A DNA stretch of 64,000 nucleotides from a bacterium (GTDB lineage Bacteria; Actinomycetota; Acidimicrobiia; Spongiisociales; Spongiisociaceae). Shown in pieces: positions 895 through 57,528 of the stretch. Positions within the stretch are counted from its first letter, which is position 1, and the number at the start of each line of letters is the position of its first letter. The stretch covers positions 108,716 to 172,715 of the forward strand of contig JAPPGU010000008.1 of assembly GCA_028821265.1 (NCBI GenBank), given 5' to 3'. The notes under the pieces were generated by a model that did not search any database, was not told where the DNA came from, and saw nothing but the letters and a program-made list of their open reading frames with translations. The position numbers and the translations under genes were made by a program.

Positions 895-939
895 CCCATC
901 CTATCGGCCTCCGCCGGGGCGGCGCCAGACCCGACCCGG

Positions 940-3535: not shown

Positions 3536-3540
3536 CGCGA

Positions 3541-29062: not shown

Positions 29063-30112
29063 TCAGGCGGGTGACTCTTCGGCAAGAGTCAGCACCCGGC
29101 GCGGGTTCTCGATCAGAATCTTGTTGATGATGTCGCGGGGTACGCCATCCCTGCTCAGCGTGGGGATGATCACGTTCATGATGTGGTCGTAGCCGGGCCC
29201 TCCGAAGCTGGACAGCCGCGCCTTGAGCCCGATGTCATGGGAGAACAGCAACTGGTCTTCGTGACCCTCGGAGATCATCCACTCGACGGCTCCGACCCGA
29301 TCGGCGTCGGAGACGTAAACCCCTTCGGTCGGGCATGGGTGCCCGAAGCCATCGAGTTCGAAGAAAGTGCCGTACTCGGCAACCCGCTTCATGTAGCTGC
29401 GGTCGCCGGTGGTCAGGTCCATGTGGCCGGCGATGACCCTGGTGGGATGCACCCCCATCTCCTTGACCAGCAGGTCCAGGATGTCGGGCATCAGCCTCTG
29501 CTCATGCAAGGCGTGGATCTGGATCGCGGCGCCCGTAGCGTGGTGGGTGATGGCGGCGGCTCTCAAGGCCTTCCACTCGGAGGGAGCGACCGGATCTGAC
29601 GTCCCGATCTCCCCGATCAGCCCGCAGCGGATCTCGGTGCCGTCCGCACCCTCGGTGATGTCCCGGATCATGCCCTCCGCCATCTCGTGCTCCGTCATCG
29701 ACTCGACGTACCAGGGCTGGGCGTGGTGGACGTAGTACCCGGTACCCGAGATGATGTTGACCCCGACATCGTCGGCGATCTTGCGCAACCCCCACACGTC
29801 CCTGCCGAGACCGAGGTCCGAGGAGTCCACGACGGTTCCGCCCAGCGCCATCTTGAAACGCCTCACCTCCATGGCGGTGAGGTACCAGTCGGTGTTGATC
29901 AGGTTGTCCCGGTTGTGGTAGGGGAACTCCCTGAGCAGGGCCGCGTTCTGGGCGGTCACCGGCATGTACGCGTCCGATCCCAGGCCGCGATGGCTCTCCT
30001 CCAGGAACCACATCAGGCACGTGAACAGCAGATGCTCGTGCATGAGGGTGATGCCGAGCCGGTCGGGCTCGACGGGGCCGTTGACGGTGATCACCTTGCC
30101 CTGATCCTTCAC
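29063..30112 (-). CDS. Phosphotriesterase-family protein #3 (close paralog of #1)
   Basis: GTG at 30112 with GGGAGG RBS; long identical stretches with 940-1986 (HEHLLFTCLMWFLE, ITHHATGAAIQIHALHEQRLMP, HDIGLKARLSSFGGPG). Confidence 0.92.
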   Translation of the reverse strand: MKDQGKVITVNGPVEPDRLGITLMHEHLLFTCLMWFLEESHRGLGSDAYMPVTAQNAALLREFPYHNRDNLINTDWYLTAMEVRRFKMALGGTVVDSSDLGLGRDVWGLRKIADDVGVNIISGTGYYVHHAQPWYVESMTEHEMAEGMIRDITEGADGTEIRCGLIGEIGTSDPVAPSEWKALRAAAITHHATGAAIQIHALHEQRLMPDILDLLVKEMGVHPTRVIAGHMDLTTGDRSYMKRVAEYGTFFELDGFGHPCPTEGVYVSDADRVGAVEWMISEGHEDQLLFSHDIGLKARLSSFGGPGYDHIMNVIIPTLSRDGVPRDIINKILIENPRRVLTLAEESPA

Positions 30113-30248
30113 GGCAACCTCCCTCGCCACGGTCCTGCCGGCACCAGACGACAATCGACGGTCTGCTTGTCGAATACAGGATCCTGCACCCCGGCGGTAC
30201 TCCTCTCCCGTCGGAGCGTACAGCAATCGGGCAGATCGTGGGCTGCGT

Positions 30249-30408: not shown

Positions 30409-31107
30409 TCAGCTACTCGGCCTTCCCACCGCCTCCCGGCCGGTGTGGCGCGGCTCCTTCATGCGAATGAAGGCCAACCCGATCAGAAACACCCAGGCGA
30501 CCTGGAGCAGCAGGATGCCGCTTCCGACCTGATACAGGCGGATCACGTCCCCGCCTCCGAGCAATGCGATCAGCAGGAGGCACGCACCAAGGATGCCCGG
30601 TATCACTCCGAGAACGGTGGCCACCGCCCGATCTGGTCCCAACAAGCGAACGTTCACCGATCCCAGTGCGAACATCCCCACGCCGATCATTGTGAACGAG
30701 ATCCCAAAGGAGACCAGGAGGGTGCCCTCTGTGGTGAACAACTCAGAAACCCCGGATGGCTGTTGCTCGCGGTCAAGATGCGTGGTCAAGAAGTGAGAGA
30801 AAGTCCACGAGATGGCCTCCGACACCAACCCCAGCACCAGTACCACCAGCCCCGCTTGCCTGAGATAGGCGACGCTCTGCCCGTCTCGGAGTACCCGCTC
30901 CATACCGATCATTCCCAGTAGAAAAGCAACAGAAACGAATATGCCGCCATCCGCTATCAGGTGAGACAATGCGGTATCCAAACCCTCATCGGGTTCCAGC
31001 GCAAGAACAACGAGGATACCAAGTGGGACACTTAGGACGGTCCCAATCACCAGTAACCAACCTACGGCTCTTGTGAAGGTTGGTCGGTCGGTGACCCCTG
31101 CCACCAA
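30409..31107 (-). CDS. Integral membrane protein of unknown function (about six TM helices)
   Basis: Several long hydrophobic segments; visibly more A/T in codons than flanking genes; start TTG 31107 or GTG 31104. Confidence 0.7.
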   Translation of the reverse strand: MVAGVTDRPTFTRAVGWLLVIGTVLSVPLGILVVLALEPDEGLDTALSHLIADGGIFVSVAFLLGMIGMERVLRDGQSVAYLRQAGLVVLVLGLVSEAISWTFSHFLTTHLDREQQPSGVSELFTTEGTLLVSFGISFTMIGVGMFALGSVNVRLLGPDRAVATVLGVIPGILGACLLLIALLGGGDVIRLYQVGSGILLLQVAWVFLIGLAFIRMKEPRHTGREAVGRPSS

Positions 31108-31462: not shown

Positions 31463-32278
31463 CTAAGGCCTGAGCACCTCCGCGAGCACGGCCCGCGCCT
31501 CGCTGAGCGTTACAGGTCGGTAGGGATCCTTGGCGATGAACTCCCGCAGTTGGGAAATGGTGAAGCCGTCGCCGCCGTAAGCCCGGTCGGCGTCGGTGAG
31601 CTCCTGGGGCTCCAGGACCGCTCCCGGGGTGTGGGTTGCCACGAACTCCATGGACTTGGTGCCCGGCGGGGCGTAACCGATCCACATCGAGCCGATGTCG
31701 GGCCTCGGCAGGTAGTAGGGCTCGACCTCCCCATAACCGGCCTCCCGGACGGCGTCGGAACAGCGTTCGGCCAGGTCATAAGGGTGGATCTCGGTCAGCA
31801 GGAAGTCATGGAAGTGCTCGATGTCCGGATCTCGCATCTTCCCGAGCATCTCCTGCCAGTGTTCCGAGGCGAAGTAGCGGTCGATGGCGTCGTGGTCGGA
31901 GTCGTTGATCCGCCTCGGGGCCACCTCTCCGAGGTAGGACCGCTCGCCGGCGTCGCCGAGCAGGACGGTGCTGCCGTCGGGATCAGGCCCGATGAGTGCG
32001 TCGTCCCCGTACGTCCACATCAGGAAGAAGGAGGGGCGGTCGGCGGTGTAGTACTTGACGAGTCCCCGGTTGCCCACCACGGCGTGGCCCACGTTGACCA
32101 CATCCTTTCCCATGGCGGCCAGGTACCGGTCGAACAGGAACTCCAGGGTCACCGGGTGGACACTCGTGGAGAGCATCACCTCATGGAGGGTCAGGTCGGA
32201 TCGGTGCATCAAGTCGATGTTCTCCGCCCAGTAGTCGGAACGGAAGAAGGTGATCAGCTCCTCGACCGTGGATGTCAT
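31463..32278 (-). CDS. Hypothetical protein with an internal two-fold repeat
   Basis: GC3-rich coding pattern, GAGGAG RBS region, last gene of a long operon; residues about 12-57 align with about 136-181. Confidence 0.8.
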   Translation of the reverse strand: MTSTVEELITFFRSDYWAENIDLMHRSDLTLHEVMLSTSVHPVTLEFLFDRYLAAMGKDVVNVGHAVVGNRGLVKYYTADRPSFFLMWTYGDDALIGPDPDGSTVLLGDAGERSYLGEVAPRRINDSDHDAIDRYFASEHWQEMLGKMRDPDIEHFHDFLLTEIHPYDLAERCSDAVREAGYGEVEPYYLPRPDIGSMWIGYAPPGTKSMEFVATHTPGAVLEPQELTDADRAYGGDGFTISQLREFIAKDPYRPVTLSEARAVLAEVLRP

Positions 32279-32302
32279 CTCAACTGCTCCTCGCGCGCCC
32301 GG

Positions 32303-33520
32303 TCACTGCCCGGACATCAGCCCGTCTAGGACGGCTTGCCCCGGGTTGACGAGTTCCTCCCCGGGAACTCTGCCCGACAATACTTCGGGCCACTTCGGCC
32401 CGGCGCCCGTTATGCAGCAAACCACGAAGTCGCCGGGTTCGATCACTCCCTGGCGCGCCAACTCCCAGGCGCCGGCGAGGGCGGCGGCCGAGGCCAGCTC
32501 GGGGCTCACCCCCACCCTGGCAGCCCGATGGAGGGCCTCGAAGATGGCCGCGTCGGTGACTTCGACCGCGGTCCCGCCCGAGTCGCGGATCGCCTGGAGC
32601 GCGATCCGCCCGCCGGTGTCGTCAGCAATGGAGAGGGCCGCTGTGTCGGGACCAGGATGTACCGGAACGTCGTCCAACCCCTTCTCGATGGCCTCCACGA
32701 TCGGGTTGGCGCCCGCCGCCTGTACCCCGTGCACGCGGGGAAGCGACTCGGTCAGACCGAGGCGGTATAGCTCCTGGAAGCCCTTCCAGGGGCCGTACAG
32801 GCCATCGCCGGCGGCCACGGGGAACAGGTAGTGATCCGGCGCCCGTCCCAGAGACAGCACCGCGTCATAGGCCATGGTCTTGTATCCCTCCACTCCGTAC
32901 GGCGTCGATACGGGCATGGGAGTCATGTAGGTCGAGGGGTACCAGCCGTGTTCTTCTACGAAGGCCTGGAGCGGAGGCTTGCGGTTCATCTCCACGACCA
33001 CGGTCGCCCCGAACAGGCGCATCCAGTCCCTTTGTGTCTTGGGTGCCCGAGGGTCGGCCAGTACCACGCAGCGCATTCCGGCCCGGGCCGCGTAGGCGGC
33101 GGCGCTCATGCCGTGGTTGCCGGTGGTGGAGCACACCACCCCGTCGAAGCCGAGCTGCCGGGCCATGGATATCGAGACCGAATGGAAGCGGTCCTTGAAT
33201 GCGTAGGTGGGGTTGACGGTCTCGTTCTGGAGGTAGAGGAAGGGCAGCGGGTTCCCGCCCGAACGAGGAACCCGGATCATGGGCGTGCCGCCCTCCCCGA
33301 GCGTGATCCTCTCGGCGCCAGCGGGGAGCGGGAGGAGTTCGGCGTAGCGCCACACTGACGCCGACCGCCGGGCCCACCTTTCCAGGGACACGACCGAGCG
33401 GACCGCCGCCTCGTTGTACATCACCTCGAGGGCCTCGCCACATGCCGGGCAGCCCCGGAAATAGGCGCCCAGGTCGTAGTCGACCGCGCACCTGATGCAC
33501 CGCAGGCCTTTTGCGAACAT
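32303..33520 (-). CDS. Threonine-synthase-like PLP enzyme (fold type II)
   Basis: N-terminal CxxC...CxxC, TLGEGGTP, NPTYAFKDR (PLP Lys), STTGNHG, EGYKTMAY. Confidence 0.88.
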   Translation of the reverse strand: MFAKGLRCIRCAVDYDLGAYFRGCPACGEALEVMYNEAAVRSVVSLERWARRSASVWRYAELLPLPAGAERITLGEGGTPMIRVPRSGGNPLPFLYLQNETVNPTYAFKDRFHSVSISMARQLGFDGVVCSTTGNHGMSAAAYAARAGMRCVVLADPRAPKTQRDWMRLFGATVVVEMNRKPPLQAFVEEHGWYPSTYMTPMPVSTPYGVEGYKTMAYDAVLSLGRAPDHYLFPVAAGDGLYGPWKGFQELYRLGLTESLPRVHGVQAAGANPIVEAIEKGLDDVPVHPGPDTAALSIADDTGGRIALQAIRDSGGTAVEVTDAAIFEALHRAARVGVSPELASAAALAGAWELARQGVIEPGDFVVCCITGAGPKWPEVLSGRVPGEELVNPGQAVLDGLMSGQ

Positions 33521-33581
33521 CCTCAGCCCCCGTGACGAACGGCTACGGCGAGGATCGTGGGGCCCGGCGGCAGCGGAAACC

Positions 33582-34538
33582 TCAGCCCGAGGCGGTTGCC
33601 CACGGCTCGACGTTGATCTGGTCGTCCCCCAGGGTGAGCACCGCGTCGGAGGAAAAAGCGTCGATCGGGGTCTCCTGGGTGGAGTACGCGTCCAGCCACG
33701 GAGTCCGGTAGCCGTCCTCCGACCAGAGGACCGGGAAGAAGTTGTCGTCGAAGTCCTGCTGTCCGGGCGCGAAGTAGCGGCTGTAGGCCCGGTGGCGGAT
33801 CCGGGGGTGGTGCCGGGAGCTGGCCGGAATCATATGGATGCTGTAGGACCGCCGGATGTTCCCGGGCCGGGTGTTGGGCCCGCTCCCGTGCCATATCCAG
33901 CCGGTGTGGAAAGCGGCCGACCCGGCCCCGAATACCAGCGACACCAGTTCGACCTCCTCCCCCTCGGGGGCGTACTGCTGGACGTAGTCGGTCCATCCCT
34001 CCATCGTGTCGCGGGCGATCTGGGTGGTGCCGGGCGCCGGCTGCGGACCCCACTTGTGGCTTCCCCGCACGTAAACGAGGGTCCCCCCGTCGGCGTAGGT
34101 GTCGTCGAGCGCGATCCAGCAGGTCCAGTTCCACACCGGATCGACCCAGCACATGAAGGCCGCGTCCTGGTGGATGTCGAAGGGCTTGCCGCCCTCCGGC
34201 TTGTACATGGCGACATCGGCCCAGAGTCGGGCGCTCGACGCCCCCTCCAGCTGGCAGGCCAGCTTGCCGAACGGCCCCCCGAAGGTGTGCTTGGCCACCA
34301 CCGGATCGGCCCGCCACAAGCCGGCCAGCACCCGATGGGCGTCCACGGGGTCCCTTCCCTTCTGCCAGTAGTACTCGTCCGGCCAATTGACCAGGTCATG
34401 CTGCCCGTCGAAGATTCGGTCGTACCTCTCCCGCAGCTCCATCACCGCGTCCATGTCGATCAGGTCCTCCACGATCAGGAACCCGTCCTCGCGATATTGC
34501 TGTATCTGCGCTTCGGTGAACTGCTCGATCACTACCAA
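33582..34538 (-). CDS. PhyH-family Fe(II)/2-oxoglutarate dioxygenase
   Basis: QYREDGFL, HQD, WIALDD, WHGSGPN..R. Confidence 0.9.
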   Translation of the reverse strand: MVVIEQFTEAQIQQYREDGFLIVEDLIDMDAVMELRERYDRIFDGQHDLVNWPDEYYWQKGRDPVDAHRVLAGLWRADPVVAKHTFGGPFGKLACQLEGASSARLWADVAMYKPEGGKPFDIHQDAAFMCWVDPVWNWTCWIALDDTYADGGTLVYVRGSHKWGPQPAPGTTQIARDTMEGWTDYVQQYAPEGEEVELVSLVFGAGSAAFHTGWIWHGSGPNTRPGNIRRSYSIHMIPASSRHHPRIRHRAYSRYFAPGQQDFDDNFFPVLWSEDGYRTPWLDAYSTQETPIDAFSSDAVLTLGDDQINVEPWATASG

Positions 34539-34656
34539 TCCTCCCCGGGACCGCCGCCGCTCGCGACTATACCCAGCCGGGCTGGGCGAAGTACCTGGAA
34601 AACGCCTGGTCTGCTGTGGAGAGCAAATGTACGGCTCTCCGGCTCGGCCGCCAGGT

Positions 34657-35034
34657 TCAGCCGGCCACCTGGAAGATGACCAAGGGATTGTTCTCGGGGT
34701 CGGTCAACTCCACGTAGCGGCCCCACTTCCTGTTCACGAGCTCGCCCACCTCGACGCCGCGAGCGACGAGGCCGTCGCGGGCGGCTTCGAGGTCGTCCAC
34801 GTGGAAGCCGGCTGCGACCGATCCGCCGACGGCCATGGGCAACTCGGTGGGATGGACCGAGCGGTCGAAGATCTCGACTCCGGGCCCGCCGGCGTCGAGG
34901 TAGACGAAGTCCACCCCCTCGTCGTACTCGGGGCCGGGGCTGATCTCGACCACCTTCAACCCGAGGACGTCCCGGTAGAAGGCCAGCATCGCCTCGAAAT
35001 CATCCGCGTAGAGCAGTACCGCTCCCAGATTCAC
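34657..35034 (-). CDS. VOC/glyoxalase family protein
   Basis: FYRDVLGL, FHVDDL, DPENN. Confidence 0.88.
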   Translation of the reverse strand: MNLGAVLLYADDFEAMLAFYRDVLGLKVVEISPGPEYDEGVDFVYLDAGGPGVEIFDRSVHPTELPMAVGGSVAAGFHVDDLEAARDGLVARGVEVGELVNRKWGRYVELTDPENNPLVIFQVAG

Positions 35035-35065
35035 GTCGCCTCCCTTCTCAGCAAGCCATCCTGGT

Positions 35066-36118
35066 TCAGACCGCGAAGATGCGCCGGGGGTTCTTCACCA
35101 GCATGTCGTCGACCTGGTCCTCGGTGACCCCCAGCTCGCGCAGCTGCGGCACGATCTCGTTGAGGATGTAGGCATAGCCCTTGCCGCCGTACTCCACGAA
35201 GTGGATCTTGAGGCAGTTGTCGTGGGCGAGCATGATCTGATTGCTGTAGCCGTCGGCGCACATGCGGGCGAGGGTCTCCACCCGCTCCCGGTCGGAGATC
35301 CAGTGGTCGCCCCCGAACAGCAGGTGGGAGTCGTTCCAAGGAGTCCCCCGGAACAGGTCGTAGTCGATTGAGACGCCCCGGTCCATCACCGACTCGTGAT
35401 ACTCGTAGTCAGGGCAGCTCCCGTCCATATGGCTCATGTAGACCTTGTCGAGGTTGGCGCCCTCCTCCTCCAAGATGTCGATGTAACGGTGAGCCTCCTT
35501 CATGAACACCATCGGATGCACGGTGAGCGGAACCCCGGTGGCCGCCTGGGCCCTACCCCCGGCCCGGAGGACCTTCTCCTCCTGGGGGTGCAGGGGCTCG
35601 CACATGCCCAACTCGCCGATGACGCCCGCCCGAATGTCGGTCCCCTGGATACCCACCTCGATGTCGCTGATCAACATCTCGGCCAACTCTCCCACCGATG
35701 CCGTGGCGTGGCCGGAAGGATGGGACGGAGCGATGTACCAACCGGTCGAGGCGACGACATTGAGCCCGGTGGCGCGGCTGGCCTCCGCCAAGGCGTCCGG
35801 CCACCAGCCCGGTATCTTGCCGCTCACATCGATGATGCTCTTCCCGCCGGCGTCGGCGTACAGCTGCAGCTCCCGGATGGCAACGTCGAGTTCGGTCATG
35901 TTGAGGTTGTCCCGGGAGATGTAGGGCCGCTCGGCCAGTATCTCGTACGCGTCCAGGGTGACGGGCGCCTCCGCCAGGGCCTGGACCTCTGGGGGGTCGT
36001 CGGGGCCGGGCGGCTCCCAGAACAGGTCGCCGCTGTCGATGATGATGTGTTCGTGGCTGAGGGTGACTCCCAGATCCTCCGGCTCTATCTCTCCCAGAAC
36101 GGTCCGGACCTTCGGCAT
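35066..36118 (-). CDS. Phosphotriesterase-family protein #4
   Basis: TVLG, HEH, GELG, VH, SH, AHD, NPRR. Confidence 0.92.
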   Translation of the reverse strand: MPKVRTVLGEIEPEDLGVTLSHEHIIIDSGDLFWEPPGPDDPPEVQALAEAPVTLDAYEILAERPYISRDNLNMTELDVAIRELQLYADAGGKSIIDVSGKIPGWWPDALAEASRATGLNVVASTGWYIAPSHPSGHATASVGELAEMLISDIEVGIQGTDIRAGVIGELGMCEPLHPQEEKVLRAGGRAQAATGVPLTVHPMVFMKEAHRYIDILEEEGANLDKVYMSHMDGSCPDYEYHESVMDRGVSIDYDLFRGTPWNDSHLLFGGDHWISDRERVETLARMCADGYSNQIMLAHDNCLKIHFVEYGGKGYAYILNEIVPQLRELGVTEDQVDDMLVKNPRRIFAV

Positions 36119-36146
36119 CGTTGCCTCCTCTCGCGCTACGGCCGGA

Positions 36147-36929
36147 TCAGAACTGTGCCCCCGCCCGATGGAGCGCGTCGATCAACTCGGCCCGGTGATC
36201 CTGGAACTCGGTGCTGGTGCGGAGCGATTCCTCCCTCGGGTGGGGGAACGGGACATCCGTCAGGTGGAACAACTGGCCCGGTCCGGTGGACATCACGAAG
36301 ACCCGCTCGCTCAGGTACAGGGCCTCCTCGACGTCGTGGGTGACGAACAGCACGGTGGCGCGCGAGTCCTCCCAGATCTTCAGGAACTCAGCCTGCAGAC
36401 GCGTCTTGGTCATGGCGTCCAGGGAGGCGAAGGGCTCGTCCATCAGCAGGACGTCGGGCTCGGCGGCTAGGGCACGGGCCACATCCACGCGCTTTCGCAT
36501 ACCGCCCGACAGCTGGTACGGGTAGGCGTCCTCCCGGCCTGACAGGCCGACCAGGTCGATGAAGCCCTGTGCCTTCTGGCGTCGTTCTCCCTTCTCGACT
36601 CCCTTGACCCGCAGGCCGTACTCGACGTTCTGGGCCACCGTGTACCAGGGGAACACCGCGTCGTCCTGAAAGACCATGCTGCGGTCCGGGCCGGGAGCGG
36701 TCACCTCGATCCCATCCCGGGCGATCGTGCCGCTGGTCGGGACCAGCAGTCCGGCCACCAGGTTGAGCAGGGTCGACTTGCCGCACCCGCTCGGACCGAG
36801 CAATGACACGAAGTCACCCTCGGTGAGTTGGAAGGAGATGTTGTCGAGGACATGCAGGTCGTCGAAGTAGATGGAGAGATCCCGTACGTCCAGCTTGACT
36901 GCGCCGCCGCTGCCCATGTCCATCGTCAT
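36147..36929 (-). CDS. ABC ATPase, NitT/TauT (TauB/SsuB-like)
   Basis: GPSGCGKS, LSGGMRKR, LLMDEPF, VTHD. Confidence 0.95.
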   Translation of the reverse strand: MTMDMGSGGAVKLDVRDLSIYFDDLHVLDNISFQLTEGDFVSLLGPSGCGKSTLLNLVAGLLVPTSGTIARDGIEVTAPGPDRSMVFQDDAVFPWYTVAQNVEYGLRVKGVEKGERRQKAQGFIDLVGLSGREDAYPYQLSGGMRKRVDVARALAAEPDVLLMDEPFASLDAMTKTRLQAEFLKIWEDSRATVLFVTHDVEEALYLSERVFVMSTGPGQLFHLTDVPFPHPREESLRTSTEFQDHRAELIDALHRAGAQF

Positions 36930-36993
36930 CCTTCTCCTCGATAAGCAGGCAACCTACCCCCGTGAGGTCGGTTGGCGCAACAGGCTGCCATGG

Positions 36994-39900
36994 TCACTGC
37001 TCTTTCTCGACCTTCATCTTCCGGCGGTTGAAGGCCGTCGCCTCGGTCTCCACCACCAGATCCTCGTCCAGTATCACCCCGTAGTCTCGTAGGGCCGCCT
37101 CACGTCCGATCTTGCCGTTCCTCACGTCCTCGGCGACGTGCCGCGGGTCCCGTTCCAACGGATTACCCCAGCCGCCGCCGCCCGCCTGAACGTGGTGGTA
37201 CAGCTCGCCCGCAGCCAGGCCGTCGCTGAACATAGGCGGGAACTCCTCGTCCTCGCCGGACAGCCTCGAAACGGTGTTGGCGGACAATCCGCCCGGCGCG
37301 CCGCCCATCAGACCGAAGGGCGGGTGCCGCTGGCGGTCGGAGCGGATCAGCAGGGAGGTGGGCACCAGCGGCCGCCATGACTTCTCCAGACCGAGACCAC
37401 CGCGGTGGCGCCCCGCCCCGCCGCTGTCGGGCACCAGGCCATAGCGTTCGATAATGATCGGGAATTCGGCTTCGGCCACCTCGATGGGGACGTTGGCTGC
37501 AGTGGCTATGGGGTTGCTGAGCCCGTCGTTCCCGTCGCCCTCAGGAGTGGCTCCCCAGGTCCCGACCAGTAGCTCGAAGTAGACGAAGGGCTCGCCGTCA
37601 TCGTGATGACCTCCAAGAATGACGACGGTGTTGCCACCCTCTCCGGCCGCGGGCACGCGGTCCGGGACCAGTTGGGCTAGGGCGCCGTTGATGGCGTCGA
37701 AGGCGCGGAACCCGGTGACGCCCCTCATCGAGTTGGCGCCCGGATAGACGGCGTGGGTGACCGTCCCCGGTTTTGTAACGATGCGGACCGGGCGGAAGGC
37801 ACCGGCGGTGTTGGGGAACTCCGAGGCGGCGGCCGACATGACGCAGTGGTATGCGGTCGCCACGATGAACGAACGGGTGGCATTGAGAGACCCCGCCACC
37901 ATGGGATCCGAATCCGAGAGGTCGACCATCACCTCATCCTCCTGGATCGTCACCTTCACCCTTATGGCCACGTCCCGGCTCTCGATCCCGTCCGAGTCCA
38001 TGTAGTCGGTGAAGGTGGCGGTCCCGTCCGGCCAGGTGGAGATCTCCTTGCGCATCAGGACCTCGGTGTAGTCGATAAGCCCGTCCATCAGCTCGGTCAG
38101 CCGCCCGATCCCGTACCGCTCGGCCATCGCCTGCAACGCCCTTTCCCCGACCGAGCAGGCCGCCACCTGGGCGCCGAGATCGCCGAAGAGCATGTGGGGA
38201 ACCCGTACGTTGGCCCTGATGAGGGCGTGGACCTCCTCCACGGGCCGGCCCTCCTTGTACAGGTGCATCCACGGTATCCGGAGACCGTCCTGGAACACCT
38301 CGGTGTTGTCGGTGGCCGAGCTCCCGAGCAGCCTTCCGCCGATGTCACCGTGGTGGGCGGTGGCCACGCCGTAGCCGATCAGGGTGTCCTCGTAGTAGAC
38401 GGGCTTTATGACGAACACGTCGGGTAAGTGCATGCCGCCGTCGAACGGATCGTTCATGATGAAGACGTCACCGGGGCGCATCCTGTCGCGGAAGCGGGCG
38501 AGGAGGGCATCCACGGCCGTGGGGACCGCCCCGAGATGGAAGGGAATGGTCACGGCCTGGGCAACGGTCTGGGCGTCCGGACCGAGCAGGGCGGCGGAGA
38601 AGTCCATGGCGTCCCGAACCACGGTCGAGTGGGCGGTCCGGAAGATGGTGGTGGCCATCTCGTCGGCGGCGGAAGCCAGGGCGTTGGCGACTATCTGGCG
38701 GGTCACGACATCGGCATGCTGTACCTCGGTCTTGCCGCCTTCCTCGTGGCTGAGGAAGAGGGCGCCCGATGCATGCCGGCGGGCGACCCAGCCGGGCGGC
38801 ACCACGATCGTGGTGTCGTATTCGTCGACGAGCAGCGGACCGGTCATCCCGTCCGGTCCCACGCCGGTCCTCCGTGCCAGCACCGGAGCGTCCAGGTAGC
38901 CACCGGCCAGGCTGAAGAGGGCGGGACGCGAGCCGTCGGATGGCTCGGCTCCGTCGGCGTGGCCGCTAAGCGTGGCTTCCTGCGACACCTGCCTGGTTCG
39001 GGGCAGGGGCCCGAGGGCGGCGAGTCGGACCGCTCGCACCTCGATCGGGTCGTCCGGATCCTTGCGTACGCCGTACAACTGCTCGTGGCGGTCCTCGAAG
39101 TCCGCCACCAGCTTCGCCAGCCCGGTAACCGTCATCTCGGTCTCCGCAATGGTCACCTCGATGTCGAAGCTCTGGCCCTTGTAGCGCACGTCGGCGGATC
39201 GGACCCACTCGGTAACGCCGCCGGAGATGCTCGACTCCAGTCGGGACTCCAGCTCGGCCAGCAGTCGGGACATGGTGGGGATCACCGAGGAGTCCCTGGC
39301 GTCGAGTTCGCAGAACCGGACATCGTGGTACTCCGGCCGGGCGTAGAGGAGACCAGCCGCAGAGAAGACCCCGGCATTGGGGGGCACGACCACCGTGTCG
39401 ATCCCCAGTTCGGTCGCCAGGCTGGCCGCGTGGATAGGACCTGCCCCGCCGAAGGCGATCAGGGCGAACTCCCGCGGATCACGCCCGCGTTCTGACGAGA
39501 CCGCGCGCAGGGCGCGCATCATCCGGGCGTTGGCCAGATCGTGGACACCCCGGGCGGCCTCCGCCACCGGAATCCCCAGTGGGGTGGCCACCGACTCCAG
39601 GGCGGACCTCGCCAGACCCGGTTTGATCGATACGGCATCCCCGGCGAGCGGTCCGGACCGGACGTAGCCCAGCACCACGTTGGCGTCGGTCACGGTGGGA
39701 TCGTCCCCGCCGAGGCCGTAGCAGGCGGGACCGGGAACCGCCCCCGCGCTGCGAGGACCCACCTGGAGGCCTCCGGCGGAGTCCACCCAGGCGATGCTCC
39801 CGCCACCGGCCCCCACCTCGGCGATGTCGATGCTCGGCACCCTCAGCAGCTCTCCGGAACCACGCAGCAACCGGGTCCCCACCGATAGGTCGGCGCCCAC

Positions 39901-40863
39901 CTCGTATTCCCTGCTGAGGGTCACCCGCCCTTCCTCGATCAGCGACGCCTTGGCCGTGGTGCCGCCCATGTCGAACGAGATGGCGTTCGCTATGCCCAGT
40001 TCCCTGGCCAATCCCTGCGCGGCCACCACCCCGGCCGCCGGACCGGACTCGAGGGCGTAGACCGGCCGGTGGGCCGCGTCGGCGGCGGTCATGGCGCCGC
40101 CGGACGACTGCATGATCAGTACCGGAGCATCTACCCCGACTCCTTCCAGACCGTCCACGAGATCGCGCACGTAGGCGCCCATGATCGGGATCACGTAGGC
40201 ATTGAGGGCGGTGGTGGCGGATCGCTCGTACTCGTTCTGCTCCCTGAGAACCTCGTTCGACAGCACGACATGGACGCCCGGGAGTTCGCGTCTCAGGATC
40301 CGCGCCACCTGCTCCTCATGGGCCGGGTACTTGTGGGCGTGCAGCAGGCAGACCGCCACCGCCTCCACATGCTCGTCGCGCAGTCGGGCGGCCACGTCCG
40401 CCACTTCGGCCTCGTCAACCGGACGGTGGGACGTCCCGTCGGCCAGCATGCGCTCGCCGATCTCGAACCGGAGGCGCCTCTCGACAATCGGCGGCGGCTT
40501 GCGCCAGAACGGGTTGTAGAGGTGGGGCATCCTGACTCTGCGGAGCTCCAGCACGTCGCGGAACCCCTCCGTGGTCACCAGGGCCAGGTGGGCGCCCCGG
40601 CGCTCCAGGATGGCGTTGGTCGCCACCGTGGTCCCGTGGATCACCTCCTGGACCAGGGTTGGCGCCGCCCGGGGAGAGTCACCCAGCAAGGTGTCGATGG
40701 CGACGGTGACCGCCTTGTCGAAGGAGGGAGGTGTGGACAGCACCTTGCGCGTGGTGGTGCGGCCGTCGGGTTCCTGGACGATGACGTCGGTAAAGGTGCC
40801 GCCTACATCCGCGCCTACCCGGCTACCCACGCCAACCCCACTCTTCGCGACAGACGTCGACAC
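36994..40863 (-). CDS. Fused hydantoinase A+B / oxoprolinase-family ATP-dependent cyclic amide hydrolase
   Basis: DVGGTFTD, HGTTVATN, SGPAAG, DMGGTT in the A half; NDPFDGGMHLPD, HHGDIGG, GGAGRHRGG, GGGGWG in the B half. Confidence 0.92.
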   Translation of the reverse strand: MSTSVAKSGVGVGSRVGADVGGTFTDVIVQEPDGRTTTRKVLSTPPSFDKAVTVAIDTLLGDSPRAAPTLVQEVIHGTTVATNAILERRGAHLALVTTEGFRDVLELRRVRMPHLYNPFWRKPPPIVERRLRFEIGERMLADGTSHRPVDEAEVADVAARLRDEHVEAVAVCLLHAHKYPAHEEQVARILRRELPGVHVVLSNEVLREQNEYERSATTALNAYVIPIMGAYVRDLVDGLEGVGVDAPVLIMQSSGGAMTAADAAHRPVYALESGPAAGVVAAQGLARELGIANAISFDMGGTTAKASLIEEGRVTLSREYEVGADLSVGTRLLRGSGELLRVPSIDIAEVGAGGGSIAWVDSAGGLQVGPRSAGAVPGPACYGLGGDDPTVTDANVVLGYVRSGPLAGDAVSIKPGLARSALESVATPLGIPVAEAARGVHDLANARMMRALRAVSSERGRDPREFALIAFGGAGPIHAASLATELGIDTVVVPPNAGVFSAAGLLYARPEYHDVRFCELDARDSSVIPTMSRLLAELESRLESSISGGVTEWVRSADVRYKGQSFDIEVTIAETEMTVTGLAKLVADFEDRHEQLYGVRKDPDDPIEVRAVRLAALGPLPRTRQVSQEATLSGHADGAEPSDGSRPALFSLAGGYLDAPVLARRTGVGPDGMTGPLLVDEYDTTIVVPPGWVARRHASGALFLSHEEGGKTEVQHADVVTRQIVANALASAADEMATTIFRTAHSTVVRDAMDFSAALLGPDAQTVAQAVTIPFHLGAVPTAVDALLARFRDRMRPGDVFIMNDPFDGGMHLPDVFVIKPVYYEDTLIGYGVATAHHGDIGGRLLGSSATDNTEVFQDGLRIPWMHLYKEGRPVEEVHALIRANVRVPHMLFGDLGAQVAACSVGERALQAMAERYGIGRLTELMDGLIDYTEVLMRKEISTWPDGTATFTDYMDSDGIESRDVAIRVKVTIQEDEVMVDLSDSDPMVAGSLNATRSFIVATAYHCVMSAAASEFPNTAGAFRPVRIVTKPGTVTHAVYPGANSMRGVTGFRAFDAINGALAQLVPDRVPAAGEGGNTVVILGGHHDDGEPFVYFELLVGTWGATPEGDGNDGLSNPIATAANVPIEVAEAEFPIIIERYGLVPDSGGAGRHRGGLGLEKSWRPLVPTSLLIRSDRQRHPPFGLMGGAPGGLSANTVSRLSGEDEEFPPMFSDGLAAGELYHHVQAGGGGWGNPLERDPRHVAEDVRNGKIGREAALRDYGVILDEDLVVETEATAFNRRKMKVEKEQ

Positions 40864-40875
40864 CTGACGCCGGCG

Positions 40876-41775
40876 TCATCGCGATCCGAGCATCTCACCA
40901 ACCATGCTGGCCGAGGCCGCGCCCCTCGAACTCCAGCGGGTGAACCGCTTGGCGACCGCCCGCAGCAGGAAGTCGCTCAGTACCGCCAGTACCGCCAGGA
41001 TCAACACGATCACGATGATCCCCGCGTTGTCGAGATACCGGACTCTGCCGAACATCAGGGCGCCCAGGCCCACACCCGTACCCATGTACTCGGCCGCCAC
41101 CACCAAACCCCACGACACCACCACGGCCAAGCGGAAACCGGCCATCATGTGGGGCACGATGGCCGGGATCACCACCGTCCGGTACACGTGGAATCGCGAG
41201 GCCCCCGCAGTCAGCGCCGCCCTCACGTAGACGTGAGGCACGTTGCGGACCGCTTCGGTGCCCGCGATGGTCAGAATCAGGAACACGCCAAAGCTGATCA
41301 GCCGGACTCCCGTCGACATCTCCGTACCGAACCACAGCATGAGCATCGGGAGAAGCGCGATCAAAGGGGTCGGGCGGATCGCGTCCAGGGAGAATTCGAA
41401 AAGATCCCGGAACACGCGGCTGTACCCGAACAACAAACCGACCACCAGCCCGGGCGGAGTACCGATCGCCACCGAAATCAGAACCATCTGAAGTGACACC
41501 CAGGTCGCACCGGGTATGCCCTCGACGAACGGGACCCGGCTGCCGGCCAGGTAATGGAACCCGGTGCTCAGATTCTCCCACAGTCGCTGGGGCGTCGGTA
41601 GGTACGCCGCATCCACCCAACCGAGGTTGGTGACCGCGAACCATAGAGCCGCGACGGCAACAGGCACGAGCAGGGCCCTTACTACCGCGAGGATCCTTGT
41701 TCCGCTGAGAACCCGTTGATCCCCAAGCCGAGCTCGGGATCCGGTCGCGGCGGCGCCTCCGCTTTTTGCAGTCAT
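40876..41775 (-). CDS. ABC permease, NitT/TauT family
   Basis: RPTP, VRAALTAGA, VAAEYMG; start at ATG 41775 uncertain. Confidence 0.87.
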   Translation of the reverse strand: MTAKSGGAAATGSRARLGDQRVLSGTRILAVVRALLVPVAVAALWFAVTNLGWVDAAYLPTPQRLWENLSTGFHYLAGSRVPFVEGIPGATWVSLQMVLISVAIGTPPGLVVGLLFGYSRVFRDLFEFSLDAIRPTPLIALLPMLMLWFGTEMSTGVRLISFGVFLILTIAGTEAVRNVPHVYVRAALTAGASRFHVYRTVVIPAIVPHMMAGFRLAVVVSWGLVVAAEYMGTGVGLGALMFGRVRYLDNAGIIVIVLILAVLAVLSDFLLRAVAKRFTRWSSRGAASASMVGEMLGSR

Positions 41776-41782
41776 GTAGTGG

Positions 41783-42664
41783 TCACGCGGTGCCGAGCAT
41801 TTCCGCAACCAGACCGCTCCCGGCCGAACGCTGCGTCCATCTCATGGTCCGCTTGATCAACGCCCTCAACAGGAAGTCGGACGCGATAGCGAGGCCGAGG
41901 AAGACGAGCGTCATGGCAAGGATCCGAGCCGAGTCCAGGTTTGTCAACCCGGCGATCAGCAGGTTCCCGAGGCCTCTAACCGATCCCATGAACTCCGCCG
42001 CCACCTCCAAACCCCACGCGGAGATAACCGCCAATCGGAGTCCCACCAGTATGTGGGGAATGATCGAAGGAACCACCACCGTCCGGTAGATGTGGAACCG
42101 AGACGCGCCCATCGTCAGCGCCGCCTTCACATGGATATGCAGGACGTTGCGCACTGCCTCGGTCGTGACGATCGTCAGGATCAGCATCACGCCCAGGGTC
42201 ACCAGAGCGATCTGGGGCCGCATCCCTATCCCGAACCAGAGCAGGAACAGCGGTATCAGGGCGAACATGGGAACCACACGCAGCCAATCGAACGAGAACT
42301 CCAGGAGATCCCGTGCCCAGCGGCTGTACCCGAACATCAAACCGAACCCGAGGCCTGCCAGCCCACCGACGACTATGCCGGTTACGACCATCTGAAGGGT
42401 GATCCAGAACGCCCCTGGTATCAGGTCCCCGATCGCCCACCAGACCGAGACGAGCTTCTGCGGTGTGGGCAGCTTGATCGCCTGAACCATTCCGCGGTTG
42501 GTGATTATGGCCCAGATCGCGAACGCGAGTGCAGGGACGAGTAGCGCCCGTACGATCCTGCTCGCGGGCCCCGGCTTTCGTAACCAGGCCAGGGCGCGAT
42601 CAGCCAGGTTGCCGATGGAGCGTGGACCGCCTCGGATCCAGTCTGGTCCGACCATTCGTCGCAT
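41783..42664 (-). CDS. ABC permease, NitT/TauT family
   Basis: RVVP, VKAALTMGA, VAAEFMG; start at ATG 42664. Confidence 0.87.
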   Translation of the reverse strand: MRRMVGPDWIRGGPRSIGNLADRALAWLRKPGPASRIVRALLVPALAFAIWAIITNRGMVQAIKLPTPQKLVSVWWAIGDLIPGAFWITLQMVVTGIVVGGLAGLGFGLMFGYSRWARDLLEFSFDWLRVVPMFALIPLFLLWFGIGMRPQIALVTLGVMLILTIVTTEAVRNVLHIHVKAALTMGASRFHIYRTVVVPSIIPHILVGLRLAVISAWGLEVAAEFMGSVRGLGNLLIAGLTNLDSARILAMTLVFLGLAIASDFLLRALIKRTMRWTQRSAGSGLVAEMLGTA

Positions 42665-42788
42665 CCTCGCCTCGACAGTCCGATCTGAGGTCTTGCCTAA
42701 CGGATGGCCGGAGGATACACACGCGGGCACCGGGACGACGGGCCACACATAGAACTACGCCCGTCCGTCTTCCGCACACCCCCTGGCT

Positions 42789-42820: not shown

Positions 42821-43336
42821 GTGCGGTTTCGAGACTTGCCGGTGTGCTTGGTTGCCGCGACCCTTCTCTTCGCCGCCTGTGGGGGAGACGGAGGTGGCGG
42901 GGGCGAAGGGGGTGGCGACGAATCGGAAACGACCGTCTCCACTTTCGGGCAGTTCGCAGATCGGGCCGATTTGCCCACGGTGGTGTACGACGGCGAAGCC
43001 TGCACCTACATCGGTCCGGAGACCGTCGCCCCCGGCCCGGTCCGGATGACGCTGGACAACCGGAGCGACATTCGGGCCCGCATCGACATCCTCCGCTTCC
43101 CCGAGGGCAGGACGTTCGAGGACCTGGCCGCCTACGTGGATAGTGGCGACGCGGCAGCCAACCAGGACTCCCCCGACTGGGTGGATCAGACCCGCAAGAT
43201 CCGCGCTCCCGCCAACCAGTTGATGGGGGCCAACCGCACCCTGTTCGACAATACCTACGGCATCCTCTGTTACATAGGAGAGTCGGCACCGTTCGAGATC
43301 CAGGCGGTCGCCACCTTCGAAGTGTTGGAGGAATAG
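42821..43336 (+). CDS. Small lipoprotein of unknown function
   Basis: GTG with AAGGAG RBS; AATLLFAAC lipobox, Gly-rich linker. Confidence 0.75.
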   Translation: MRFRDLPVCLVAATLLFAACGGDGGGGGEGGGDESETTVSTFGQFADRADLPTVVYDGEACTYIGPETVAPGPVRMTLDNRSDIRARIDILRFPEGRTFEDLAAYVDSGDAAANQDSPDWVDQTRKIRAPANQLMGANRTLFDNTYGILCYIGESAPFEIQAVATFEVLEE

Positions 43337-43556: not shown

Positions 43557-43808
43557 TCAAATACCTCTGGCTTCGAACTGCTTGTCGATTGCCTCGCTGA
43601 TCATCGCCTGCTTACCGTCGGCGATTCTTGATCCGCCAGAATCGAATAGTCCGAAGATGGCAGATGGATCGTTCGAGGACGTGCCCTGCCCCAGGTCGTG
43701 AGCTACGAGACGACGTATGTGCTCGGACAACGAGACTCCTCGGCGAGCCGCCTTCCGCTTGGTTTCGGCATCGTGGTGGTCCGGGAGCACGAACGAAACA
43801 CCAATCAC
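43557..43808 (-). CDS. Ribbon-helix-helix (CopG/VapB-like) antitoxin
   Basis: KAARRGVSLSEHIRRLV RHH pattern; lies directly upstream of the PIN remnant. Confidence 0.72.
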   Translation of the reverse strand: MIGVSFVLPDHHDAETKRKAARRGVSLSEHIRRLVAHDLGQGTSSNDPSAIFGLFDSGGSRIADGKQAMISEAIDKQFEARGI

Positions 43809-45547
43809 CGGGGGATCACAGGGAGGGTGAGACGGCTTCGGTGCCGTGCATCGTGGTACACGGTCTGGCGGGCTGACCGGAAGCCGGACTCTCGACCGAC
43901 GTCGCCTCCCAGGTTGGTGTTGCGGTCGAAGCGGGGGAAGTTACTGCTCGACACCTCGAGACGGATCCGGTGCCCGGCTTTGAACACCCACGAGACCTCC
44001 CACAGATCGATCCGGTACTCGTAGACCTGTCCGGGCTCGATCAGGGAGGGGGACTGGCGGCTCTCCCGGCACCTCGCCCTGACGATCCCTTCGGTGACGT
44101 TGATGGCCCGGCCGTCGGGGAACACATCTACGAGCGTGGCCGTGAAGTCGGTATCAGGCGCCGACGAGGCCGCGAAGAGGACTGCCTTCACCCGCCCGGT
44201 GCACTCGAGGTCGGAAGGGAGCAGATCACCGGTGTACACCAGGACATCGGACCGGTCCTCGACCGTCGACCGGTCACGGGGTCCACTCTGGTCCACGTAA
44301 GCCACCTGGCCGCCCAGCGTGGGAACCGGGGCGGAGGGGTCGTACACGTACGTGTCGGGCGGCTCATCGCCGGCCGGCGGTTCCCAACCGAGGCTTCCGT
44401 CTCCCTGCCGCGTGTTCGCTGATCCTTGCCCGTGCAGGAACAAGTCCCGGTACTCGGTGCGCGCCAGCGGCCACTCGTATTCCCCCCGCCACACGTTGTC
44501 GCCGCACACGAAGAGTTGGAGCGGCGCCTCGTCGTCGACCCCGGTCGCGATTCCCTTGAGGCGCTGGTCGTACCAGTGGCGGTGCAGGGCGAAGATGTCG
44601 AGTTCGGCATCCGGGCCGAACTGGACATCCTGACCCCAGTCGGCCACCCCGATACGGGTGTGGGTCCAGGGACCGCACATGATCTTGGTCCTGGCCCGAG
44701 CCTCGGGCCCGGCGTCCCGTGTCCAGTTCTCGAACGCCTCGAACATGTGCCGCACGGTGCAATCCCACCACCCGGTCAGGAAATAGGCGGGCGCCTCGAT
44801 CGTCCCGTACCGGCCGTTCACGATCCGCTTCTCCCAGTACGCGTCGTAGGTGTTGTGGTCGAGGAGCTCCTTCCATATCGTCACGTCGTCGTACTCGTCG
44901 AACGCCGAGTAGAGGGGCATCCGCTCGTAGAGGTACGAGAGGTCACCGGGGGGATCGCCGGCCTTGCCGCCGCCCACGCCCATCGTCCCGCCGGGCAAAC
45001 CGGCCAGCATGGCCATCCCTTGCGCGTGGCTGGTCCGCCGACCGATCTGGAGAAAATGGCTGGCCTGCTGCATCAGGAATGCTCCCTGCTGCCAGAACAT
45101 GTCGTAGCCGTCCGGCGTCGCCGCGATCGGCAGGATGGCCTTGAGTCCCTCCGAGGCCAGCGGGGCGGGATGCATCTGGGTGAAGCCCAGATAAGAGATA
45201 CCGAACATGCCGACGTTCCCGTCGCACCACGGTTGGCGGATCAGCCACTCCACGGTGTCGTGACCGTCCTCGTCCTGGACATAGACCTCCCAGACCCCGT
45301 CGGAGTCGTAGCGCCCCCGGCAGTCCTGTATGACGACGGCATAACCGTCCTCCATGAAGCGCTCCCCCCAGCCCACGTAACCGTTCGGGCGAGCCCCGTC
45401 GGTCTCGGGGTAGCTCTCTTTGCTGTAGATGGTCCGGGTGAGCAGGACGGGAAACCGATCCCCCTCCGGCGGCAGGTACACATCGGCCGACAACAGGGTC
45501 CCATCCCTCATCGGCACCCGCACATCGAGCATGATCTTCTGTCTCAT
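43805..45547 (-). CDS. CocE/NonD family serine hydrolase, copy A
   Basis: VPMRDG..L.ADVY.P, QDCRGRYDS, GISYLG, GWWD, GPWTH, SSSNFPRFDRN. Confidence 0.93.
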   Translation of the reverse strand: MRQKIMLDVRVPMRDGTLLSADVYLPPEGDRFPVLLTRTIYSKESYPETDGARPNGYVGWGERFMEDGYAVVIQDCRGRYDSDGVWEVYVQDEDGHDTVEWLIRQPWCDGNVGMFGISYLGFTQMHPAPLASEGLKAILPIAATPDGYDMFWQQGAFLMQQASHFLQIGRRTSHAQGMAMLAGLPGGTMGVGGGKAGDPPGDLSYLYERMPLYSAFDEYDDVTIWKELLDHNTYDAYWEKRIVNGRYGTIEAPAYFLTGWWDCTVRHMFEAFENWTRDAGPEARARTKIMCGPWTHTRIGVADWGQDVQFGPDAELDIFALHRHWYDQRLKGIATGVDDEAPLQLFVCGDNVWRGEYEWPLARTEYRDLFLHGQGSANTRQGDGSLGWEPPAGDEPPDTYVYDPSAPVPTLGGQVAYVDQSGPRDRSTVEDRSDVLVYTGDLLPSDLECTGRVKAVLFAASSAPDTDFTATLVDVFPDGRAINVTEGIVRARCRESRQSPSLIEPGQVYEYRIDLWEVSWVFKAGHRIRLEVSSSNFPRFDRNTNLGGDVGRESGFRSARQTVYHDARHRSRLTLPVIPR

Positions 45548-48197: not shown

Positions 48198-48214
48198 CGG
48201 GCGCCCTCGGCTGA

Positions 48215-49105: not shown

Positions 49106-49270
49106 CCCGACCTCCCCATCCTCGCCTTGTGCGGTCTCCACCCCACCGTACACCCCTAGTGGACATCCTCGCCACCGCCGAAATGGGTCCCGGCTAGCGT
49201 TGGGCGCAGCGTGGAGCACGGCCGCGGGGCGGGCTTCGCCGATCGACCACCGTCCCGGAGGGAGGCAAGG

Positions 49271-52557: not shown

Positions 52558-56202
<3,645 letters not shown>

Positions 56203-56248
56203 CCGACCGGCCGCGGTCCGGGGTTAGTTGTCTCCGGCTCGATGACGC

Positions 56249-57325: not shown

Positions 57326-57528
57326 ACGCCCGAGCCTTTGTGGTCCAGCCCTGATCTTATCGTTCGGCGCACCTCGCAGCGTGCGGTCCGGTCCTCGTCG
57401 ACCGGCTCGACCACACGGCGGAAACCAGTTGAAGGGCCATATGACCTGGGCTAACCTCGACGACGGGTACCGGATTCCCATGTTGAGTTCATCGACCAGG
57501 AATCGTGATCGGGCGGGAGGAGAGCGCC

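Follow-up and report, generated by a model that had tools for sequence, protein, structure and literature searches.

A co-inherited gene island of sponge-symbiotic Spongiisociaceae proposed to import and open a cyclic amide

Introduction

What is the function of nine co-directional genes that occupy positions 31463-42748 on the minus strand of a 64,000-nucleotide stretch of DNA (hereafter the window) from a sponge symbiont? The source is a metagenome-assembled genome (MAG) of Ca. Spongiisociaceae (Acidimicrobiia), and the genes encode, in this order, two permeases of an ATP-binding cassette (ABC) transporter (perm2 and perm1), a fused HyuA/HyuB protein (HyuAB), an ABC ATPase, a PTE-family hydrolase (PTE1), a small VOC-fold protein, a PhyH dioxygenase, a ThrC-like enzyme dependent on pyridoxal phosphate (PLP) and an orphan protein (unk271a). 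An earlier interpretation, the sequence-only reading, had taken them for an eleven-kb operon for the uptake and ring-opening of a cyclic amide or amino acid and knew of no described pathway with such a set. Our literature search likewise found none, and it returned nothing on Spongiisocius, on a similar microcompartment locus or on bacterial microcompartments (BMCs) with DUF3830.

We propose, at a rough probability of 0.55, that the nine genes belong to a lineage-specific catabolic island, which would import a small N-heterocycle, open its ring at the expense of ATP, deacylate and hydroxylate the product, dismantle it with PLP enzymes and pass an aldehyde-forming branch to a BMC. Catabolism of cyclic amides by HyuA/B-type enzymes together with ABC uptake is of a known kind; to this the island adds several uncharacterised families and an unexpected BMC link.

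Conservation and co-inheritance of the gene cluster

Pfam and NCBIfam searches back all nine assignments, so that the gene content and minus-strand arrangement given by the sequence-only reading could be confirmed, and the intergenic distances from perm2 to unk271a are -26, 12, 64, 28, 31, 118, 61 and 24 nt. The GC content is even across the block (0.64-0.69), which gives no obvious sign of a recent import. A search with PhyH retrieved 12 species-level relatives, all of them Candidatus Spongiisocius, Spongiisociaceae or Acidimicrobiia MAGs and several from sponge bins. The order perm2-perm1-HyuAB-ATPase-PTE1-(VOC)-PhyH-ThrC-like-unk271-(PTE2), in which PTE2 is a second PTE-family hydrolase, was found in 12/12 species representatives with 72-99% protein identity; the flanks vary.

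In a phyletic test, five genes were searched in 29 Spongiisociaceae genomes: HyuAB (orthologues counted at >=81% identity), PhyH, a lipoprotein gene at 45724-47013, unk271a and its paralogue unk271b. All five showed the identical distribution, i.e. they were present in 14 of the 29 genomes and absent from the other 15. The positive genomes cover three of seven genera, and the genus of the source itself is split (6/12). This pattern indicates an accessory trait of the symbiont family, which was gained or lost as one block, and together with the same order in the 12 relatives it amounts to more than chance. Hence, conservation elsewhere, whose absence the sequence-only reading had named as its refutation, was found as a syntenic and co-inherited set. 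Outside the family, a sample of 301 Acidimicrobiia genomes held a single PhyH relative (36% identity) with no such cluster around it, and close PhyH homologues are confined to Spongiisociaceae within the sampled class. A metagenome scan with an unk271 profile gave only three loci.

In-frame stops occur within otherwise well-conserved orthologues at locus L011 (perm1, HyuAB) and locus L013 (perm2); they could reflect pseudogenisation or errors of long-read assembly.

The importer and its putative binding protein

The permeases perm2 (41783-42748; BPD_transp_1 1.5e-28) and perm1 (40876-41808; BPD_transp_1 2.8e-25), which overlap by 26 nt, and the ATPase (36147-36929; ABC_tran 6e-33) are all of the NitT/TauT type. 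The best NCBIfam models were SaoP, SsuC and TauC for perm2, all under cut-off, TauC, SaoP and SsuC for perm1, and SaoA, TauB and NtrCD for the ATPase. Since all transporter scores remained below the equivalog cut-offs, the assignment as a NitT/TauT importer holds at the family level only. The true start of perm2 is probably the ATG at 42664; its orthologues share 74-99% identity, with the first ~6% of the protein unconserved. Directly upstream of perm2, a small conserved lipoprotein with the lipobox LFAACGG and no Pfam match is encoded divergently on the plus strand (~42824-43336), hence the co-directional string starts at perm2.

The lipoprotein at 45724-47013 (plus strand) gave no Pfam or PDB sequence match, and only 25 homologues were found. 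Its AlphaFold2 (AF2) model (pLDDT 77) matched TauA in Foldseek (1.1e-9, probability 1.0, TMt 0.68-0.72) and furthermore Thi5, PqqT, NrtA and SsuA. The orthologues are situated 10-30 kb upstream of the cluster, divergently oriented, and co-occur with PhyH in 14/14 genomes. The TauA/SsuA-like fold identifies this lipoprotein, which the sequence-only reading had already called a substrate-binding protein (SBP), as the SBP that the cluster lacks; on predicted fold, co-occurrence and linkage it is the putative cognate SBP and represents a new subfamily of NitT/TauT type. A 34% paralogue in the window reaches the NMT1 cut-off.

A proposed ring-opening enzyme

HyuAB (36994-40863, 1289 aa) contains the Pfam domains Hydant_A_N (HyuA_N; 6e-49), Hydantoinase_A (6.6e-89) and Hydantoinase_B (1.9e-162). 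Its nearest solved structure is N-methylhydantoinase (EC 3.5.2.14; PDB 7hk5/9h03), likewise a HyuA-HyuB fusion of 1288 aa, of which 7hk5 was matched over the full length with 713 bits, whereas carboxylase subunits gave at most 237 bits. The identity to 7hk5 was estimated by eye as ~40%, a value at which orthology is not established. The ATP motifs of the ASKHA fold (DxGGTxTD, DxGGT and GxxPGP) are present as D19VGGTFTD, D298MGGT and G374AVPGP. Of the Asp-His-Asp-His metal tetrad in the B-part, motifs gave the positions of three residues (H812, D815, H837/838), while the first Asp lies within the RDAMDFS stretch and was assigned by eye, not fixed by alignment; the roles of the tetrad residues are taken from PMC8453981. 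HyuAB thus shares with N-methylhydantoinase the fused architecture, the ATP motifs and most of the tetrad. From these sequence features we propose that it is the ring-opening enzyme, which would hydrolyse a cyclic amide with the consumption of ATP rather than carboxylate a ketone.

The ATP-driven opening of a five-membered cyclic ureide in the creatinine/N-methylhydantoin route is the best mechanistic model for HyuAB. However, that route has no place for the PhyH, ThrC-like, VOC and PTE genes, and neither creatinine deaminase nor N-carbamoylsarcosine amidase domains were detected by Pfam and NCBIfam at 26984-50971. With these partner enzymes absent from the region, the creatinine route was rejected and survives as a mechanistic analogy only. 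A second comparison leads to the catabolism of caprolactam and valerolactam by CapAB of Pseudomonas jessenii and OplBA of P. putida, which are ATP-dependent lactamases of HyuA/B type. CapA and CapB are the best NCBIfam models for HyuAB (NF050156 and NF050157; 510.5 and 305.9 bits, respectively, with a cut-off of 1000 each), and the omega-aminotransferase that follows the lactamase in these routes has a counterpart in the class-III aminotransferase of the related clusters L018 and L040. In contrast to the two-subunit lactamases HyuAB is fused, its scores stay at roughly one half (CapA) and one third (CapB) of the cut-offs, and the gene neighbourhood differs.

A second fused HyuAB (52558-56202, 1214 aa) is 33% identical to the first and paired with another PTE gene in the region 52558-57481 (minus strand). 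Where the first copy reaches 713 bits, this one scores 497 bits, and HyuAB2-type genes also occur in family genomes without the island, hence this gene is independent of it. More generally, the HyuA/HyuB family is expanded in Spongiisociaceae, with up to 14 matches at E<=1e-100 per genome, which suggests that these symbionts possess many ATP-dependent lactamase or carboxylase activities.

PTE, VOC and PhyH proteins

PTE1 (35066-36118; PTE 5e-69) is a binuclear metallohydrolase, in which all metal ligands (His, His, Glu, His, His, Asp) are present as H22, H24, E169, H201, H230 and D300. It matched PDB 3k2g (Rsp3690) with 2e-64 and the sponge PTER 9efa with 5e-54. By its sequence, it is assigned to the Glu-bridged subgroup of Rsp3690, PTER and Pmi1525, i.e. 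an N-acetyltaurine hydrolase and promiscuous esterases, with which it shares the bridging Glu and the helical insertion after the first beta/alpha unit. The PTER match together with a TauT-type transporter raised the idea of N-acetyltaurine or N-acyl-taurine hydrolysis. In PTER, Arg209 and Arg238 hold the sulfonate of taurine and His305 acts as proton donor (PMC12873775). PTE1 has V204, G233 and C302 at these positions, hence it is no orthologue of the N-acetyltaurine hydrolase, and with the sulfonate-binding arginines absent we rejected this function for PTE1. The second hydrolase of the family, PTE2 (29063-30226, minus strand; PTE 1.4e-62), stands at the downstream end of the string. The VOC/glyoxalase-fold protein (34657-35034; Glyoxalase 6e-16) is small, with 125 aa.

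PhyH (33582-34538; 2e-24) is a Fe(II)/2-oxoglutarate dioxygenase that scored 87.4 bits against a Pfam gathering cut-off of 22. A pattern search located the HxD motif at H123-Q-D125; H217 and R229/R230 are candidates for the distal His and Arg, picked by eye from the sequence rather than fixed by alignment. The nearest PDB entries are remote (SnoK 3e-11, MysH 2.5e-8, and also EvdO2). An open reading frame at 33523-34386, which overlaps PhyH in another frame, has no domain match.

A dioxygenase of this family next to a fold-type II PLP enzyme recalls the catabolism of ectoine and hydroxyectoine (DoeAB, EutABC), whose substrate, a cyclic amino-acid derivative, is akin to the kind proposed here and whose EctD is distantly similar to PhyH. 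The scores are far under the cut-offs, namely 27 bits vs 336.5 for EctD and 34 vs 413 for EutB, and the cluster is without a DoeA/M24 hydrolase or EutC. Hence, the ectoine route was rejected. That the characteristic genes of the ectoine and creatinine routes are missing from the operon had been stated in the sequence-only reading and is borne out here.

A ThrC-like enzyme that is not threonine synthase

Like threonine synthase and the ThrC-like cysteate synthase, the ThrC-like protein (32303-33520; PALP 2e-59) is a fold-type II PLP enzyme, and solved ThrC structures were matched with an E-value of 1e-46. The PLP lysine is kept as K109 in FKDR. However, the protein scored 137.7 bits with TIGR00260 (cut-off 167.1) and 236.4 with NF006050 (cut-off 303), and in the genome search the match was split into two pieces, which reached no more than 75.7 and 61.2 bits. 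Furthermore, it carries an N-terminal zinc ribbon (CxxC..CxxC). In ThrC of T. thermophilus, T88, N154, S155, R160 and N188 reportedly bind the substrate phosphate. The residues aligned to them are H, T, P, G and A, and they are invariant across the ThrC-like family in several phyla. A canonical thrC is present elsewhere in the source genome, on contig C37. Based on cut-offs, active-site residues and the separate true thrC, the identification as canonical threonine synthase was rejected; the sequence features place the 32303-33520 product in a distinct PLP family. As the family lacks the phosphate site, its PLP chemistry need not be an elimination from a phospho-substrate.

The family extends over several phyla, with members of ~50% identity in Zixibacteria, Latescibacteria and Bryobacterales. 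It is recognisable by the zinc ribbon and the motifs STTGNHG and AAGDxLYGPW, and its JGI annotation is threonine synthase. The contexts in other phyla are heterogeneous and uninformative: a DUF1537 kinase-PdxA fusion follows the L023 gene, and an IclR regulator and SDR genes were found in L024. The family also recurs beside genes for D-Ser-dehydratase/BhcC-like proteins. A 64% paralogue on contig C42 of the source genome (G000:C42, L022) sits between such a gene and a DAO oxidase, and the former encodes a 35% paralogue of a protein in our window. This is the product of 47088-48200 (minus strand; Ala_racemase_N and D-ser_dehydrat), a PLP enzyme resembling the beta-hydroxy-amino-acid aldolase BhcC and D-Ser-dehydratase, which reached 390 bits with NF045642 at a cut-off of 690 and whose gene is conserved beside the SBP gene.

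The orphan family unk271

For unk271a (31463-32278, 271 aa), no Pfam, NCBIfam or PDB sequence match was obtained, and only 16 homologues were detectable among 5.8e9 proteins. With a profile of the family, 73 of 1.84e9 representatives matched at E<=1e-3, and among ten that were scanned none carries a Pfam domain. The AF2 model (pLDDT 93.7) displays a duplicated helix-helix-beta-alpha-beta-beta-beta unit. In Foldseek, every top match is a glyoxalase/VOC protein (E 4e-4, probability 0.95), with TM values that do not exceed 0.32; the two-module fold of the model is possibly VOC-like. Invariant His, Glu and Asp residues in the family suggest a metal site, for which E33, H65, E154-H155-x-H157 and E211 are the predicted residues. 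The paralogue unk271b is 45-47% identical. In genome G025, the intact unk271a is closely followed by a 65-aa fragment (G025:C1:139492-139686), which matches its C-terminus with 77% identity.

In relatives, unk271a is normally followed directly by PTE2; L003, L007-L011 and L039 have gaps of -20 to +88 nt there, and other loci have wider ones. In the window, a 232-aa multi-pass membrane protein without family match is inserted between the two genes (30409-31107, minus strand); otherwise, this insertion was seen only in the closest relative, L005.

A larger island and its microcompartment partner

The conserved unit reaches upstream of the nine-gene string to ~50971. It includes, in addition to the small lipoprotein, the SBP and the BhcC-like protein, a CocE/NonD (S15) family hydrolase (43805-45547, minus strand; Peptidase_S15 and PepX_C, TIGR00976 with 445 bits, above its cut-off), an Amidohydro_2 family protein (48215-49180 with approximate start, minus strand; Amidohydro_2 3e-30) and, at the upstream edge, a second S15 family hydrolase recognised by Pfam (49211-50971, plus strand). 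Seven genomes from other genera keep this arrangement, interspersed with insertions of variable size. The small lipoprotein has orthologues of 79-88% identity in the same position in these seven genomes, the first S15 gene stays between the SBP and the small lipoprotein, the Amidohydro_2 orthologues (92-97%) keep their position, and the second S15 gene does so in L043, L045 and L046. The nine genes are indeed conserved together, as the eleven-kb unit of the sequence-only reading implied, but the functional unit is larger and comprises the upstream genes as well as an obligate partner module with BMC genes.

This partner module begins in the window at 1-1986 (minus strand) with a PTE gene (940-1986), a Cucumopine_C gene (427-900) and the N-terminus of a Gfo/Idh/MocA protein (2-457), and it continues on the same strand before window position 1 (G000:C9:103500-108715; L037 11576-16714). 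There, it encodes Gfo/MocA, unk271b, a 594-aa aldehyde dehydrogenase, BMC-H, BMC-P (EutN), a BMC-T-like protein and DUF3830; in L037 the matches are 2.8e-26 for PF00936, 9e-23 for PF03319 and 1.6e-169 for PF00171. The module lies ~32 kb downstream of the nine-gene string in the source genus and 4-15 kb in other genera, and it always co-occurs with the island, as unk271b is present in the same 14/29 genomes. In L018 and L040 (70-80% identity), both modules form one unbroken co-directional string of ~20 genes, with a partner part PTE-CucC-Gfo-unk271b-Aldedh-BMC-H/P/T-DUF3830-AspDH that ends in the gene for aspartate dehydrogenase (AspDH), and these strings additionally carry the class-III aminotransferase and Amidohydro_2. 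Moreover, L020, which belongs to an independent metagenomic lineage, holds ThrC-like, Cucumopine_C, HyuA, HyuB, Gfo/MocA and unk271-like genes in one string, with genes for a GntR regulator and DUF3830 as neighbours. The strongest evidence for a common pathway of island and partner module comes from this recombined string.

The aldehyde dehydrogenase is of the non-acylating betaine/aminobutyraldehyde (BADH-like) type. It shares with DUF3830 a conserved N-terminal domain of 47 aa (MRRxxTTEDIR...GxRxxEG) followed by a linker, which in sequence looks like an encapsulation tag of BMC cargo; a search for this domain among the proteins of the nine-gene cluster found it on none of them. The shell proteins BMC-H, BMC-P and BMC-T-like and a pfam00171 aldehyde dehydrogenase with N-terminal extension are reminiscent of metabolosomes with incomplete core (MIC/MUF; Sutter et al., 2021, PMC8217296). 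In contrast to these, the dehydrogenase of the partner module is non-acylating, and neither phosphotransacylase nor alcohol dehydrogenase was seen in L037, L001, L018 and L040. A term search of the main text of this BMC catalogue (PMC8217296) gave no occurrence of Cucumopine_C, Gfo/MocA, unk271 or DUF3830.

Two further features of the window touch the partner module and the related strings. Adjoining the PTE-Cucumopine_C-Gfo genes, a second BPD_transp_1 pair is followed by the 34% SBP paralogue with its weak NMT1/THI5 match (2627-5842, plus strand), hence each module has its own importer of NitT/TauT type. A class-III aminotransferase at 21171-22556 (minus strand) is 53% identical to the one inside the L018 and L040 clusters and is possibly its displaced functional equivalent.

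Discussion

From gene identities, catalytic motifs, synteny, block co-inheritance, the SBP fold and the non-ThrC PLP enzyme we infer a catabolic direction, an order of steps, a substrate class and a link to the BMC. Importer-type permeases head the string and the SBP fold is TauA/SsuA-like, the upstream genes are kept in other genera, and the continuity in L018 and L040 as well as the L020 string connect the two modules. In the proposed pathway, the NitT/TauT-type importer, i.e. the two permeases, the ATPase and the 45724-47013 SBP, would bring in a small, polar N-heterocycle derived from the host or the holobiont. HyuAB would then phosphorylate and hydrolyse a stable ring of five or six members, a cyclic amide or ureide of lactam or hydantoin type, and the PTE metallohydrolases, probably together with the S15 and Amidohydro_2 hydrolases, would take off an acyl, carbamoyl or ester group. 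The released amino-acid-like product could be hydroxylated by PhyH and the hydroxylated compound dismantled by the ThrC-like enzyme and the BhcC-like aldolase, with the two VOC-type proteins as putative isomerases or lyases. Finally, an aldehyde-forming branch may lead to the partner module with its PTE, Cucumopine_C, Gfo/MocA, unk271b, aldehyde dehydrogenase and BMC shell.

Several observations weigh against this reading. The strong synteny all comes from one bacterial family, such that part of it could reflect shared ancestry. The junction between PTE1/VOC and PhyH is variable (51-6209 nt) and contains inserted genes, in the manner of an insertion hotspot: a RelB antitoxin gene was found there in L003/L004 (7121-7378), a 6.2-kb insert in L015 (3325-9535), and gaps of ~830-860 nt in L008, L011 and L012. 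The VOC gene is missing in three species (L013, L014, L016). Given this variable junction, a single 11-kb transcript is unproven and the string may consist of two transcription units; a consensus scan for promoters and terminators gave nothing convincing and nothing above the shuffled background. Furthermore, ketone carboxylases also belong to the HyuA/B enzyme family. Paralogous PTE, HyuA/B, S15 and Amidohydro_2 genes abound in the genome, hence the adjacency of hydrolases is partly expected. Taken together, the earlier interpretation is partly supported: gene content, conservation, the SBP and the absence of a known pathway hold, whereas the extent of the unit and the reading of the ThrC-like gene had to be revised.

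The most serious alternative, which we nevertheless regard as unlikely, takes up the variable junction and assumes two independent, adjoining units: an operon for uptake and ring-opening (perm2-perm1-HyuAB-ATPase-PTE1), acting for example on N-methylhydantoin from creatinine or on lactams of 5-oxoproline type, and an amino-acid-modifying operon (PhyH-ThrC-like-unk271-PTE2) with another substrate. The interrupted junction with RelB in L003/L004 and the dispensable VOC gene fit such a division, as do the location of the halves on different contigs in genome G002, the N-methylhydantoinase as nearest solved relative of HyuAB, and a sarcosine-oxidase-like complex within the same window. However, the halves are never apart in the 29 family genomes, where their order and orientation are constant, and L020 from another lineage mixes both halves (ThrC-like, HyuA/B) in one string. 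Moreover, the cluster has no creatinine deaminase or N-carbamoylsarcosine amidase domain.

Both remaining readings are less likely than the catabolic and the two-operon ones. It is quite improbable that the genes form no specific pathway, i.e. a run of promiscuous hydrolase and oxygenase paralogues retained by chance from families that were expanded for general scavenging. At least five PTE genes, two fused HyuAB and two S15 genes in one window and up to 14 HyuA/B-family matches per family genome are what such an expansion would give, but the perfect co-presence and co-absence of the five tested genes across 29 genomes, the order kept at 70-80% identity in L018 and L040, and the orphan families unk271 and SBP, which are almost exclusive to this context, speak against it. 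Slighter still is the chance of a biosynthetic cluster, in which PhyH, beta/gamma-replacement by the ThrC-like enzyme and the VOC proteins would turn a precursor supplied by the ABC system into a small natural product or a modified non-proteinogenic amino acid: the nearest PDB entries of PhyH are natural-product enzymes (SnoK, MysH, EvdO2), and ThrC-like and other fold-type II PLP enzymes do carry out replacement reactions in secondary metabolism, but there are no genes for nonribosomal peptide synthetases, polyketide synthases, ATP-grasp enzymes, methyltransferases or exporters, importer-type permeases and an SBP stand at the head of a hydrolase-rich string, and the linked NAD-type aldehyde dehydrogenase and microcompartment are typical of catabolism.

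Within the catabolic reading, a more specific version may be put forward tentatively; we consider it possible but well short of probable. Island and partner module would constitute a new BMC-linked pathway, restricted to sponge symbionts, for a host-derived N-heterocycle of hydantoin or lactam type. Ring opening with ATP and deacylation would yield an amino acid, which PhyH would hydroxylate at the beta position; the BhcC-like and ThrC-like enzymes would split the product to an amino-aldehyde, and the betaine/aminobutyraldehyde-type dehydrogenase would oxidise it inside the BMC. If true, this would give the first functions for unk271, for the stand-alone Cucumopine_C protein and for the zinc-ribbon ThrC-like enzymes.

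Many sponges, among them Aplysina and Rhopaloeides, harbour Spongiisociaceae in abundance as uncultured symbionts. With its ~20 kb gained or lost together, the island marks a specific trait of nutrition that separates otherwise close symbiont species; it brings a dedicated binding protein and is linked to a microcompartment. Biocatalysis could gain from it a new lactamase or hydantoinase that works with ATP. Naming the substrate of the island would lead to first functions for the orphan VOC-like family, for the new SBP subfamily and for the widespread ThrC-like enzymes now mis-annotated as threonine synthase, and it would identify a currency of the exchange between sponges and their microbes.

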